Both the position numbers and the translations under genes were made by a program. Positions 19,973 through 49,624 of a stretch of 64,000 nt of DNA are shown here, in pieces (the first letter of the stretch is position 1; each line of letters opens with the position of its first letter). Where the stretch lies: positions 80,290,001 through 80,354,000 of the forward strand of contig OX597825.1 of assembly GCA_951406725.2 (NCBI GenBank), given 5' to 3'. The notes beneath the pieces were generated by a model. It did not search any database and was not told where the DNA came from. It worked only from the letters and a program-made list of their open reading frames with translations. Source of the stretch: Octopus vulgaris. Lineage: Eukaryota.

Positions 19973-21697
19973 GTGGAGGGAAACTGTTAAGTGAGGAAAT
20001 GCGGAGAAAAGGAAGTGCAGGGGAACGGATTCAAAGCAGCGGATGGTGAGTGTGAAGTTGAAACAAAACCTGTTTACCAACTTCCTCGTTCCTTGTCCTA
20101 AACTGGAGAACACATCAGCTCATTACTGGGAACGTTATCGGCCGTTCTGGTCTGCTTTACAGATCTGGTTGTTGTTAAGTTCGCTTGTGAAGTGGAGAAT
20201 ATCTTACCTTATAGACCTAGAGATTAGATTTAAGGATTGGGAGAGGAATCTCTTTAAGTGTGTCAAGCAAAAGATGAAGAGATTTAGAGATGGTGAGATG
20301 TTGTTCTGCAAAACCCATCCGATTCTTGCCAACATGGGAAAGTAAAAGAATTAAGCAAATGATGGTAATGAAGATATGGGGAACAAAGGCGGCGGCAGCG
20401 GCTGTGGTAGTGAATGTTTTTGTTGTTTTTACTGTTGGTTTCCCAAATTTTATCAAATGAAACCTTAACTGATGTTGATTCTGTAAATTTTAGGATATTT
20501 TCCTCAGAATATTCGTCCTAACCCTTTAGTGTCTGTTTTTCCATGCTGGCATGGGTTGGACAGTCTGACATGAGCTGGCAAAGCCAGAAACTGCACCGGG
20601 TTTCATTGTATACTTTGCTCTGTTTCTACAGCCGGATGTCCTTCCTAATGCCAACCACTTCAGAGCATACTGAGTGATTTTTATTCCTTATTTCAGGTAC
20701 ATGGAATAACTCAAACTAAACACCACAAACCTAACAAAACATTTCTAAACTTTTTTTTTTTGGAGCCTGGTGCAGCCTCCTCACTTGCCAGCCCTCAGTC
20801 AAACCGTCCAACCCATGCCAGCATGGAAAGCAGACGCTAAACGACAAAGATGATGATGATGATGATGTTAATCCAGAGAAGAAAGACTGCATAATGCTGA
20901 CATGCTGGCTATTGTGGTGAGTCACTCAGTCTGTATTTGGAGGTTTGACAATCACTGCTTCGCCTCCTGTGCTATGTCACCTCTTAGTCACAGCACTTAG
21001 TAAATATTGACTCTTCTTTGCCAGGTAAAATCCAAAACACCCTGACGACCCACAGCCTGTTGCAAATCTAAATAATGGTTTCTTATTTAAGCACAAGGCC
21101 AGCAGTTTTGAGAGGAGTGACGTTAATGCCACTGACACTCTCCCCCACCCCGATTTCCAATATTTGATTGGTATTTTATTTTATCAACTCCAGAGGAATG
21201 TAAGCCAAAGTTGACCACAGTGGGATTAAAACATAAAGGCCAGGTCAGCAATTTTTGAGGGGAAGGGGGGGGGTCAGTTGATACCATTGATCCAGTCCTA
21301 ATTTCTGGTATTTTATTTTATCAACCCCAAAGAAATGAAAAGCAAAGTTGACTTCAATGAGATAAAGGCACAAGGCCCACAGCACAACTAGACTGGCTCT
21401 TTGTATTTCACTGACCGCAGGGGGATGAAAAGCAAACTTGACTCCAAGGAGATAAAGATAGTAAATAAAAGATATTTTTGTCTTTTTTGTCACACCTTTG
21501 ACCTGTAATTTACAGTTACCTGCAAGGTGTATCCAGGTGTGTCAAAAATATTTTAAATTTTAATCCTGGATTTTACAAATCCATATTAATGAGTGATCTA
21601 TTTTAAAAGCATGTTCGTAATTTATTGCAGAATGGAAAGTGTTTATAAGCCATTTAAAACACACAAAAACCGTTAGATTCACTTCAACATTTAAATT

Positions 21698-22107
21698 GGT
21701 TGTATACTGTCAATCTAACGTGAACGTGACAGTAGGGGGTTACACCACCGCTGTTTAGCCCTAGGAAGCATCGACGCTTCCTGATGGCTTTGACACATTA
21801 TTCCTGTGTCCTTATATACATTTACGAAGGGGAGACTCTAGACCGATGAAGGACAATGATCCTGAAACATGCGTGTCTCTAGATGCAGGCCTGTCTGCTG
21901 GGGGTGTTTGTCTCCCCTTCGTAAATGTATATAAGGACACAGGAAAAATGTGTCAAAGCCATCAGGAGGCGTCGATGCTTCCTAGGGCTAAACAGCAGTG
22001 GTATAACCCCCTACTGTCACGTTTGTGTTAGATTGACAGTATACAACCATTCTATCGCCCCACCACCGTACATATCTCTATGAGAGATTTAGAAATTTAA
22101 TATTTCT
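21698..22107. mobile_element. Penelope-like fold-back insertion with 12-bp TSD
   Basis: 139-bp inverted arms at 21698-21836 and 21910-22048; aacatttaaatt duplicated at 21686-21697 and 22108-22119; hammerhead motif in the loop. Confidence 0.7.
21837..21883 (+). ncRNA. Minimal type-I hammerhead ribozyme motif (U4C core variant)
   Basis: Stem I TCTAGA - CCGATGA - stem II AGGA(caatga)TCCT - GAA - stem III ACA(tgcg)TGT - C (GUC site at 21877) - stem I TCTAGA. Confidence 0.7.
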
Positions 22108-22300
22108 AACATTTAAATTTATTTTGCCAAAATATTTTCATCACTTTGAGACCACCACCTTCATTCATCTTAAGCCTGATCTTCCACATTAGCATGGCTA
22201 AGATGAACCATTATTGGGGTATTGCTTTTTATAGTTGGATACCGTTCCTGTTGCTAACCCTTACCTGTTATTTAAACAAGGGATTTCTTATACCACATGT

Positions 22301-22534
22301 ATAAGGCAGCAAGCTGGCAGAAACGTTAGCACGCCAGGCGAAATGCTTAGCGGTATTTTGCCTGCCGTTACATTCTAAGTTCAAATTCCGCCGAGGTCAT
22401 TCTTGCCTTTCATTCTTTCGGGGTCAATAAATTAAGTACCAGATACGCACTGGGGTCAATATAATCAACTTAATCCCTTTGTCTGTCCTTATTTGTCCCC
22501 TCTACATTTAGCCCCTTGGGGGTAATAAAGAAAT
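22301..22534 (+). mobile_element. SINE family B, full length with ~23-bp TSD
   Basis: Complete family B sequence flanked by aagggatt(t/c)cttata(c/a)cacatgt at 22278-22300 and 22535-22557. Confidence 0.85.
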
Positions 22535-29200: not shown

Positions 29201-31036
29201 TTCTGTCAACCAAATCCACTCACAGGGCTTTGGTTGGCCTGAGGTTATAATAGAAGATACTTGCCCAAGGTGCCAATCAGTAGGACTGAATCAGAAGCCA
29301 CGTACTTGGTAAGCAAGCTACTTACCACACAGCCACTCCTGTAAATATATATATATATATATATATATTGTGTGTGTGTATGATAGCTAGATAGATAGAC
29401 ATTATTTAAAACACTGAAATTATCAACATTCTTGTATTGATGGTGCTAGGAATGTTCTTTTCTCATCTTCACTAATCTTTTGGCATTAAGCATTGCAGTT
29501 TTCCATTCCAATATATCATTTGTTCTACAATGACTAAGGTACACCAATGTTTTTAAGTCCCAATTTAGTTATTTTTATTCCTACTTTCCAAAGTTGGTAC
29601 TTACATTTTCCAACTTTATCGTGCATTCTTAAGTTCTTGCTGAAATTCAGATTTGAATTCTACATATCAGAATTAAATGGTTTAAGAAGAACCAATGAGG
29701 GAGCTGGTATTTAGTTGCTTGACCTAGTAAAAATATCAGTCAAATCTCCCTCAAATCATGTCCAAACATCTTAAAAGGAAGACATACTGTTAATGTGATC
29801 ATAGATACACTATGCCTGGAAAAACAGAACAGTATAATGACAACTGGAAGAGCTTTGATCATTGGTTAAAGGGCTTAATCAGGACTGCCCTGGGTTAAAC
29901 AATAACAAGAAATAAAATGTGAATTGAACCCACATTTTCCAACTGTTTCTGTGGTTCTCAAATCAGAGATTCATTTAGGGGTTATATGAACCCTTTCACC
30001 TACACTTAATTAGCTCATTAGTCTGTTAGTAAAGGGTCATCACCAAGATACGCTTGACCTATTTACTTGGAATTTAGAATACTTTTAACAGTTAACCAGC
30101 AGACCTTCATATTAGCCAAATTCCATTCTGTATAGAGCAACATAAATCAAATTTCCTTTCGTTTTTTATTTCTTCTGCAATATTTCATTCCTCAAAGACT
30201 TTAGGTGCAAAAATGCAAAAACCAAAACTGAAAATTCATTTAAATTGATGGTGGCAGCCTCCTCCAATCCAAAGTTCTTCATTTATATATTTAACAAGAG
30301 AAGAATCTGTAAAGACATTCTTGAGGAACTACGAAGATGGACATGAAGAACAAGCATATTACAAATAGAAATACCTTTTTTTTTTTAAGTTACATTTAAA
30401 AATATAGGAAAAATATAAAATATACTAGAGTAAAGATTATTTGCCAACATAATGCGGCAGTCCTGGTCAGGACGAATGCTACTGCTATTTAGCCCCAGGA
30501 AACATAGTCTCCGGCTGGCTATAATGACACACTATCTGGCATATAGCCAGCTGGAGACGATGTATCTCTAATTAAAAGCAACTCCTAAAGTGATTGATTA
30601 TAAATTATGGGAAATAACAAAGTGGTGAAAAACACTCTTTGGATGCTGGGCCTCAATGAGGAAATGTCAAAGGACCGGGAGATGTGGTGATTTGTTGTAC
30701 TTGATAAGACATGTGAAACTAAATAAAACCATTGTCTTCCACATATACAGGCTTATCCTTTCAGATGCTGGTGCCACTTAAGAAGCGCCTGTGCCAGTGC
30801 TGGTGGCACATAAAAAGCACCCAGCACACGCTTGAGTGGTTGGTGTTAGAAAGGGCATTCAACCATAGAAACCATGCAATAACAGTCAAGGGAAGTCTTG
30901 AACAGCTATACTGACTCCAACTCACAATATCGTTATTCTTTAATATAAACCAGTTATAACATAAAAGGCCTGCTCAATGTACAAGAGTATGCATATGCTT
31001 TATATGATATGTAGACCACTATCAATTACATAAAGA

Positions 31037-46681: not shown

Positions 46682-49624
46682 AATCTTTATGCAATTGTGT
46701 CTCCTTGTCTTAACATTGTGTAACAGTCGTAAACAAGTATCATTGTCATACAAGCAGTCATGTCATTCGTTTTCAGTTTCCCATGGAAACACACGCAACC
46801 TTGGGGAAATAGTATCTTTCTTGGAAACAGGTGAGGATTGGTAACAAGAAAGGCATCTGGCTGTGGAAAATCTGATTCAATAAATTCCATCTGACCGATG
46901 CAAGCATAGAAAACATGAATTAAAATGACTGATCGCTATCATCCTTTTGGGGTTGATAAATTAAGTATCAGTGAAATTCTGGGGTCAATGTAATTGACTA
47001 GTCCTCTTCCCCAAAATTTCAGCCCTTGTGCCTATAATAGAAAAGATTTGGCATTAGGAAGGGCATCCAGCTGTAGAAACCTTGCCAGATCAGATTGGAG
47101 CTTGGTACACAGCCTTCTGGCTTGCCAGTCCTCAGTCAGACCATCCAACCCATGCCAGCATGGGAAGCGGACGTTAAACAGTGGTGGTGGTGGTGGCGAC
47201 GTCGGTGGTAGTGGCGATGCCGGTGGTGGTGAGGTGATGATGATATGATGATAATGTTGATGATGCTGATGTTGGGTGGTGGTGGTGATGGGGTGATGTA
47301 ATCGACTTTTCCCCTTGCCCCCCAAAACTGCTGGCCTTGAGCCAAAATTTTGAAACCAATACTGAATATAATGTTAGCACCAGCATAAAATAGTTTTAGG
47401 TTTACAACTGTTTATATATCCAAGGAACAAAAGAAACAAACACACCACCACCATTCAAATAAAACTGCCAGATTTTAAGCAGGTCAAAAACTGGCTGCTC
47501 AGATTGTCAACCCTCCAAAAGTTTACATTCTTGAATCCTAAAAATAAAAAAAAAATTTTTGGAATTTATTCCTTTTTTTTCTTCTACTTTTTATATATGT
47601 GTGTGTATATTTGGGGGTGAGGGACGGGGTTCATAAGAAAAACATCAACAAATAATATGAAGTGTTTCAGTTTTAGTTGACACTATTAAAGCATATCTGG
47701 AAAAATAAAAGTGAAAAAATAAGGAATTAAATAAACAGGGAGTTGAGGAGAAAGGAGAGGGGGAAGAAGAAAGAAATGAAGAAAAACAGGGAGCAAAGAA
47801 GGACTCCTGAAGAAATTAATTTTTTTTTTTTCTAAACTCAGCTGTATGTTTACCATCTTTGTAGACTTAATAGGAATAACACAGCATTATCTTTTGGTTC
47901 AGTTTTAATGTTGCCAGAACGGAGTGTGCATGCGTATGTGTGTGTGTGTGTGAATGTGCACACATTGCATTCTTTTTATTTATCTAGCAATAACACGATG
48001 TAATGAAATATTTAACAGGAATATTTTTATTTATTGCGGAGTAAAAAAAGAAAAAAAAATCTCAATTATCACCAAAATCTAGCAAAATATACCAACAGTT
48101 TGAGGATAGAAGAGAGGCAGGCATACACACACACACACATATATATATATATGCATAGAGGCATACTAACCAACTCATCCAAATATAAGTATATATACAC
48201 ACACACACATGGCATACTGTATTTGATGACATATAAAACGCATATTTTCAAGGAAAAAAATATGTCCCCCACCCAAAAAAAATCACCAATCTTAGTCCTA
48301 AATGCAAAGTTGAGCCTATATTACATGGTTTAATACATTAAAACTTTTTATTGCTGAATATGTGCTGCCTACAAAACCTCAAGTTACAAGGGACAGAATA
48401 AAACTGTTTTAAATAGTAATGTATGGAACTCTTCCGAAATTTGAGTGCCTTTTTCTTTTGTTTGTCCACTCACCCTTATATGCATATAAAGATATACGTA
48501 TACATACATACAAACAAATCTGCACACATACACACACATATACATACATACAAAAATACTCTGTTGTTGATGTTGAAATTCCAATGAACGAGCCTTGGAT
48601 CTAGGTTAGAAACCAGCTCTTTCTCTATTGGCATAATGACGTGTGTGTGCGTGTGTATGTATATATGTATAATAATATATATATGCATATATACATATGT
48701 ATATGTACATACTTACATCTATACGTATATATATATATATATATGCATATATGAGCACAGGACGTCATGAAATGTGTACAACAAAAAATACGAAGTACAA
48801 GTACATGGAACATGAACTATTTTTTCGAACAACAAAAGACACAAATGGAAAATAAGACAAACAACATAAAGAACGACCCTTCATCAGTTGTTGGCTGTTT
48901 TTCTAGTCTCGTATTTTGAGCATTTCACAACATGATACGCTTTCGATAAAATAGTTGCTCCCACAAAGCAAATTAAATAAAATTTGGGATTTTGCTGAGG
49001 GTCCAAATTGGTAACAAAAACAGGACAGTGAAAACAAACAGGAAGGGCTGCTAAGCCTAAACAAGGTTTTGGTGGCGTTAGGAAGGGCATCCAGCTGTAG
49101 AAACTCTGCCAGATCAGATTGGAGCCTGGCGCAGCTATCTGGTTCGCCAGTCCTCAGTCAAATCGTCCAACCCATGCTAGCATGAAAAGCGGACGTTAAA
49201 CGATGATAATGATGATGATGATGATGATATATATAGCCTTTTTTGGCATAAAAGACACACAGACATGTTACACACAAGCCAATTTCAACAGTGTATATTC
49301 AAGGAAAAAAGTTTTTAGCACATTAGAGTATGTAATATGCAGCCAACTTCACATATAGGACCAGGAGTGATTTTTGGGGACATTTTTGGAGGGACAAATG
49401 TGTGTCATATAAGCTATCAAATGCAGTAGCTGTCATACTATATTATTAACTACAAGAAGTTAATTCTGCTGATGAGCAATGCTTCACCACCATTTCATCA
49501 TCATCATCGTTTAACGTCCGCTTTCCATGCTAGCATGGGTTGGACAGTTTGACTGTGGGCTGGCGAACCAGATGGCTGCACCAGGCTCCAGTCTTGATCT
49601 GGCATTGTTTCTACAGCTGATTGT

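Follow-up and report, generated by a model that had tools for sequence, protein, structure and literature searches.

The window, as we call the 64,000-nucleotide stretch of octopus DNA analyzed here, carries a 410-bp non-coding insert that is a feature of a known kind, namely a Penelope-type two-armed stump of a hammerhead ribozyme repeat family. Given its anatomy, we consider it likely that the insert consists of a 5′-truncated direct copy of the family sequence (from 21835 or 21837 to 22107) and a shorter inverted copy without the final 59 nt, and that the two were placed head to head by Penelope-like pasting. The inverted arm is likely to be an ordinary scar of such an insertion and not a purpose-built hairpin, and the insert points to neither a new RNA system nor a regulatory hairpin. 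The anatomy of the insert, its empty target, the continuous order of the family sequence (ribozyme, loop, arm, and tail), and the high copy number of the family are all observed directly. As a compact footprint in which arms, tail, duplication, and empty site can all be read, the insert ties the hammerhead repeats of animals to Penelope-like enzymes. Its mildly unusual point is probably a core substitution, U4C, that extends across the family.

Architecture of the Insert

The insert is enclosed by exact copies of a 12-bp direct repeat (Table 1), and the chance probability of such a repeat at one fixed place is 7e-7. Its two arms, each of 139 bp, are complementary at 132 of 139 positions (95%) and are separated by a loop of 73 nt, an unpaired spacer. 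To this extent, the insertion, duplication, and inverted arms described in an earlier reading made from the letters of the window (the sequence-only reading) are confirmed. That reading also described the whole as a fold-back element. The arms are indeed inverted, but the structure is asymmetric: the left arm adjoins the left duplication, and the right arm ends 59 nt before the right duplication. This gap is the key to the structure. Because the right arm stops short of the duplication, the arms are not terminal repeats.

Table 1. Features of the insert and its target, in positions of the window
Feature	Position	Strand	Basis or remark
Host repeat, left part	21605..21685	.	Depth bins; outer boundary approximate; element inserted into repeat
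Left duplication	21686..21697	+	12 bp, A+T-rich, 3′ end ATT; empty-site joint in 3/4 runs
Inverted 5′-truncated second family copy, mirror of 21910-22048, without tail	21698..21836	-	132/139 complementary; family pieces diverge at 21835-21837
Probable 2-nt microhomology at head-to-head junction	21835..21836	+	Suggested by alignment start at 21835 in 5/8 junction pieces
Predicted type I hammerhead	21837..21883	+	Fold and descriptor match
Remaining hairpin loop, family sequence 3′ of ribozyme	21884..21909	+	6/32 listed pieces span 21909/21910, at least 31 letters each side
Direct-copy body (right arm), with internal hairpin and TATA-like motif, without long ORF	21910..22048	+	
One-sided 59-nt tail between two putative reverse-transcription start points (22048 and 22107)	22049..22107	+	
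Right duplication	22108..22119	+	12 bp, matches left copy
Host repeat, right part	22120..22162	.	X1 loose ends; outer boundary approximate

The same asymmetry bears on whether the arms are the terminal inverted repeats of a DNA-transposon MITE, an outcome that the sequence-only reading had named as fatal to its own view. We reject this possibility, which is hardly credible on the present evidence even though long inverted arms, a lack of coding sequence, and a high copy number would all suit such an element. Inverted repeats abutting the duplication at both termini are not found, as the right arm falls 59 nt short, and contig depth is polarized toward one end. Furthermore, the loop is the best-conserved part (no variant in 21837-21872 among the 40 of 47 variant rows listed), and in other copies it is continuous with one arm only.

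The arms also carry signs of independent decay. Compared with the family majority, private changes are present in the right arm at 22003 and 22024 and in the left arm at 21800 and at the other base of the 22024-22025 CpG. Thus, the two arms have decayed on opposite strands at one CpG, with no sign of compensation. Private changes in each arm indicate that the hairpin is decaying and is not being maintained. The seven differences between the arms are not mainly A-to-G, and fixed A-to-I editing in the arms is therefore unsupported at the DNA level.

Several smaller features lie within the insert. An arm-internal hairpin at 21964-21983 (mirror 21763-21782) reaches about -18 kcal/mol with its flanks. 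A TATA-like sequence, TATATAA, at 21928-21934 is readable on both arms and could be the promoter of the unit. The first half of the tail is A+C-rich, and the tail closes with a small terminal hairpin at 22091-22107; the tail end (22091-22122), with this 6-bp hairpin, is similar to the reverse complement of the target duplication. We also considered a 61-codon frame that opens from an AUG inside the ribozyme core. This frame stops at 22029-22031 in each arm and is disrupted by frame-shifting indels in family copies, so it was rejected as an ORF. An ORF check of the insert found no Met-started frame that extends out through the tail. Within the 64-kb window, no second full copy of the insert was found. 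A weak match to the arm around its internal hairpin lies at 30481-30535 (72% over 58 nt, with no hammerhead nearby) and is possibly an old relative.

The Repeat Family and Its Empty Target in Public Contigs

The stretch is partly present in 20 of the 24 public runs listed. Contigs from four runs (X1, X2, X4, and X7; three species labels, three studies) were aligned to positions 21450-22350 at 85% likeness. With short contigs at this likeness, arm reads fit two places and most joint sides are shorter than 30 letters. Coordinates of minus-strand records were taken in the direction of the record itself, which is consistent across rows. All of the listed runs that contain the stretch are contigs, and none is on record as RNA; runs guessed as RNA contain 0.20-0.28 of the words, a fraction that counts neither way.

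An empty target site is present in these contigs. A joint from 21685 to 22108, found in three of the four runs and with 12 letters that fit both sides, corresponds to a site with a single 12-mer. In addition, the loose ends behind 21697 in 168 X1 contigs resemble the sequence that follows the right duplication. Together, these observations establish that the duplication is real. The target is itself a repeat (21605-21697 and 22108-22162) that is more abundant than the family, with a depth tens of thousands of times that of single-copy sequence in the bin 21667-21697.

Relative to single-copy flank contigs, the summed depth is about 1,300-4,500-fold over the ribozyme and 12,800-29,200-fold over the tail, where depth is not equal to copy number. 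On the basis of this summed depth, the family comprises thousands of copies. The tail exceeds the ribozyme by 2.8- to 21.6-fold, a ratio partly inflated by clipping near the junction, and a 3′ excess of this kind is what 5′ truncation predicts.

The order of the family sequence can be read from individual pieces. None of the 32 pieces listed (of 123,625 in total) crosses the junction between the left arm and the ribozyme, and eight of them start at 21835-21837 with 5-74 unaligned letters upstream. Bridges with at least 31 letters on each side join the loop to the right arm in six of the listed pieces and the right arm to the tail in two. These bridges and breaks indicate that the family strand runs continuously through ribozyme, loop, right arm, and tail, and that the left arm duplicates part of it locally, in inverted orientation. 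In five of the eight junction pieces, the alignment starts at 21835, two letters into the left arm, which suggests a 2-nt microhomology at the junction.

Other ends and joints vary in position. One listed piece ends at 22047 and is followed by 58 foreign letters, which corresponds to the outer end of the left arm. In all four runs, a joint leaves at 22107 to other sequence, with a weak side of 27 letters. Additional 5′ breaks among the listed pieces fall at 21864, 21946, and 22032. The 15 joints listed, of 110, include other fold-back joints from 21797 to 21971, from 21797 to 22082, and from 21771 to 21971, although the internal hairpin may have given rise to the last one artificially. None of these 15 returns to the ribozyme from the 3′ end. 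The family sequence seen spans at least 271 nt. In two pieces at another locus (X1 and X4), the match extends 15 letters beyond 22107, across the duplication to 22122, which could reflect a second insertion in the same target or homology between the family RNA and the target.

Hammerhead Fold and a Variant Core

The loop begins with a predicted type I hammerhead fold. Helix I (21837-42/21878-83) has 6 bp and is itself a palindrome, helix II (21850-53/21860-63) has 4 bp and a 6-nt loop, and GAAA follows at 21864-67. Helix III (21867-21876) is near-palindromic, being self-complementary with two G-U pairs. The GUC site has its C at 21877, and cleavage is predicted after this nucleotide. A relaxed descriptor scan of both strands of the window returned this hammerhead as its sole match, and a stricter descriptor that it also satisfies had no matches in 60 dinucleotide shuffles of the 64-kb window. 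At gathering score, Rfam matched nothing in the window, and at E up to 10 it gave four chance matches over 21600-22200, none of them a hammerhead.

The sequence-only reading considered this a complete type I hammerhead. The fold, the helix sizes, and the GUC site bear this out, but the core and the closing pair of helix II do not. The core at 21843-49 reads CCGAUGA in place of CUGAUGA, which is a U4C change at 21844, and all remaining core positions are canonical. The 10.1-11.1 pair is A21850-U21863 instead of the typical G-C pair that closes helix II. Canonical metazoan type I hammerheads have a helix I of 6 bp, a helix II of 4 bp, and a short helix III with a palindromic loop, and G10.1-C11.1 is their typical closing pair of helix II (PMC4209133). 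The helix sizes and the palindromic loop of the RNA examined here agree with this form, but its core departs from CUGANGA...GAAA...UH by the C at position 4, and it lacks the G10.1-C11.1 pair. It also differs from the minimal hammerheads of metazoan Penelope-like elements (PMC4209133), which have a helix II of 7-8 bp, a helix I of 4-5 bp, and an extra unpaired base between positions 9 and 10.1.

Folding calculations do not favor the active structure in this copy. In the whole insert, pair probabilities are 0.06-0.21 for helix I and 0.08-0.11 for helix III, and those for helix I are about equal without the left arm. The folding z-score of the loop is +0.81. As a dimer, the helix III duplex is predicted to have an energy of -12.5 kcal/mol, which would fit the dimer mode of metazoan type I hammerheads (PMC4209133). 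The ribozyme in this copy is probably without the outer part of helix I, given that the 5′ strand beyond helix I, which is the position of any loop 1-loop 2 contact, has been replaced by the inverted arm.

These findings weigh against the central proposal of the sequence-only reading, namely that arm, loop, and arm together make up one discrete mobile element whose loop displays a working ribozyme. The loop does start within 2 nt of helix I, and the arms have kept 95% complementarity, as might be expected of such a unit. However, none of the 32 listed pieces crosses its left junction and eight leave there, the other fold-back joints differ, and junction positions look scattered among copies. 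Moreover, the left arm does not raise the active fold, which is disfavored and has a U4C core, and private changes have accumulated in both arms, including the uncompensated CpG decay at 22024-22025. We consider this proposal very improbable.

As judged from the contig alignments, U4C is probably the family state, at a position 7-9 letters from many piece starts, where an end filter could hide a variant. In the four-run contig alignment, 21844 lies in the interval that is free of listed variants. The C-to-T counts of X2, X4, and X7 are fully explained by the listed rows, so T at 21844 is below 3% in these runs; X1 has one C-to-T place that is not among the listed rows. The alignment of two divergent pieces begins at 21843, which suggests that they have no mismatch at 21844. 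Motif variants listed are G21873A (2.9-9.5% of depth across the four runs) and T21878C (4%, one run). G21873A is the one motif variant at about 3% or more in all four runs, and it perfects the palindrome of helix III while keeping the dimer pairing. No two-sided change in the helices occurs among the 40 of 47 variant rows listed.

The same substitution is found in a viroid hammerhead, where, in the account consulted, it makes the ribozyme much less active in vitro, yet infectivity is retained in vivo (PMC3088659). That case is a variant of a plant viroid, whereas here U4C is apparently carried by most copies of a genomic repeat family that numbers in the thousands. Should U4C prove to be fixed in the family, it would constitute a natural test of the minimal cleavage that such elements need. 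In the literature searched, supplements aside, we found no description of a U4C or CCGAUGA ribozyme in an animal retroelement, a point on which the Penelope variants of Lunse et al. could bear. The sole literature match for cephalopod retrozymes concerns Naiads. A pattern search returned 109 loci from metagenome contigs and 44 from viral contigs, all rejected as chance matches. In all 153 loci, blastn matches are limited to the pattern itself (25-28 letters), and helices I and III of the family occur in none of the 26 matches with a preceding core-like CY.

A Proposed Penelope-Type Insertion Mechanism

We propose that the insert arose as follows. An endonuclease would nick both strands of the A+T-rich site, 12 bp apart, and each 3′ end would prime reverse transcription on family RNA. 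The direct copy would be the cDNA made from the bottom-strand nick, with an outer start at 22107, and the left arm (+ strand) would be the cDNA made from the top-strand nick, with an inner start at 22048. The two cDNAs would reach about 271 and 139 nt before stopping, and about 2 nt of microhomology would join them, yielding arm, loop, arm, and tail between the duplications. Copying would have ended at the ribozyme, which is why the loop opens with it, and a stop within 2 nt of helix I may reflect chance or a pause. The longer cDNA would pass the predicted cut by about 41 nt, which suggests that the template was uncut, re-ligated, or circular RNA. The mobilizing enzyme is presumably Penelope-like.

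The arrangement agrees with published accounts of Penelope-like insertions. In these, an inverted 5′-truncated copy lies beside a direct copy, and one end carries a tail of 30-40 bp (Craig et al. 2021, PMC8557442); another report describes an inverted pLTR with duplications of 8-10 bp and microhomology at its junction (Arkhipova et al. 2013, PMC3846280). In vitro, an anole element cleaves and extends both strands with a preference for ATT; its reverse transcription begins at two internal sites, one on either side of the tail, and the template is mainly uncut RNA (Frangieh et al. 2024, PMC11167929). With the insertion units described in these three reports, the insert shares the head-to-head arrangement of an inverted 5′-truncated copy and a direct copy, a tail at one end only, a hammerhead near the end, a short duplication at an A+T-rich site that contains ATT, and a probable microhomology junction. 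Among the options put forward in the sequence-only reading was a 5′-inverted Penelope end, which agrees with the tail at one side only, the duplication, the empty site, and the variation in 5′ junctions among other copies.

There are also differences from the published examples. The tail is 59 nt long, compared with 30-40 bp in the described units, and the duplication is 12 bp, compared with 8-10 bp in the Adineta examples. Penelope-like elements as described have an ORF and minimal helices, whereas no ORF is seen in the insert and the ribozyme has canonical helix sizes.

An inverted arm could also arise if a cDNA or an antisense RNA folded back and primed its own copying, or if DNA repair followed a simple insertion. 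In the account of Arkhipova et al. (PMC3846280), self-priming is proposed for Penelope inversions with palindromic junctions, and helix I provides a 6-bp palindrome at the junction here. However, the junction is a 73-nt unpaired spacer and not a palindrome, and the inverted arm starts exactly at the 3′ end of the target, at a point (22048) that is common to one other copy. Priming from a second nick explains both the start at the target 3′ end and the shared point directly. We therefore give self-priming or repair only a slight chance of being correct.

Nature of the Parent Element

With two-nick priming as the preferred mechanism, the likeliest candidate for the parent is a tandem non-coding retrozyme, ahead of the end of a coding Penelope-like element. 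The canonical helix sizes and the lack of a Met-started frame through the tail favor a non-coding parent. Like retrozymes, the family is non-coding and high-copy and carries a type I hammerhead. The sequence-only reading took the insert to be a non-autonomous ribozyme-bearing retroelement, and for the parent family this view is probably correct.

Non-LTR retrozymes with canonical type I helix sizes have been described from mussel, coral, and axolotl (Cervera and de la Pena 2020, PMC7229834), and a recent preprint argues that retrozymes derive from Penelope-like elements (Li, Clavereau and Pollet 2026, bioRxiv 10.64898/2026.07.22.740005). Such elements are defined by a tandem array whose units, about 170-400 nt in length, each contain a ribozyme, and by monomeric linear and circular RNA. 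The family examined here has in common with them its non-coding, high-copy nature, a 6-bp helix I, a 4-bp helix II, and a short palindromic helix III, and dispersed monomer derivatives are also described among retrozymes. It differs in its U4C core, and the described elements are tandem whereas this copy amounts to less than or about one unit. As far as this likeness in genomic sequence goes, membership of the family among the retrozymes is probable.

The parent ribozyme would act mainly as a dimer through its self-complementary helix III, and the U4C change and the A-U pair at 10.1-11.1 suggest that it is probably slow. The genomic stump, with its one truncated ribozyme, is probably inert. 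We further speculate, as an idea more likely to be wrong than right, that a retrozyme family may have fixed a weak hammerhead (U4C plus A-U) whose slow, dimer-only cutting would spare uncut or circular RNA for two-nick copying, with copying stalling at helix I. Two start points 59 nt apart would then extend the tail rule known from Penelope.

A less likely alternative, although one that deserves attention, is that the same insertion mechanism acted on a different parent, namely a coding Penelope-like element whose 3′ pseudo-LTR is the source of the insert (e.g., of the Neptune type, with a ribozyme in the 3′ untranslated end). The stump would then be an ordinary 5′-truncated autonomous element. 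The 3′-heavy depth is consistent with this option, as is the TATA-like motif, which is also present in the pLTR described from Adineta (PMC3846280). Single and opposite-strand animal hammerheads have been ascribed to truncated Penelope-like elements (PMC4209133), and no tandem joint appears among the 15 of 110 joints listed. However, the helix sizes are canonical and not of the minimal Penelope form, and no ORF start runs through the tail. Hence, we retain the non-coding retrozyme as the preferred parent.

Genomic Surroundings

No other copy of the target repeat was found within the window. Pfam was searched with 124 of the 140 window ORFs of at least 80 aa (the other 16, mostly within simple repeats, were excluded), and the one match obtained is below the cut-off. 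Among the 124 ORFs scanned, no host gene or retroelement protein, including any of Penelope-like type, was found, although exons are often shorter than 80 aa. The scan thus speaks neither for nor against the host-gene intron suggested in the sequence-only reading.

Other repeats lie elsewhere in the window. A common repeat with a (GAT)n tail is present as two copies arranged tail to tail at 49092-49228 and 49495-49619, which form 100-nt and 25-nt inverted repeats; no duplication or hammerhead was found with this pair. A similar pair lies at 20538-20829. Just to the left of the element, at 21169-21457, are three degenerate tandem fragments of another repeat, 57-74 nt long and 77-79% identical. 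To its right, an extremely high-depth repeat begins at 22287-22350, with summed depth in the millions, and in one family copy elsewhere the end at 22107 directly adjoins this repeat.
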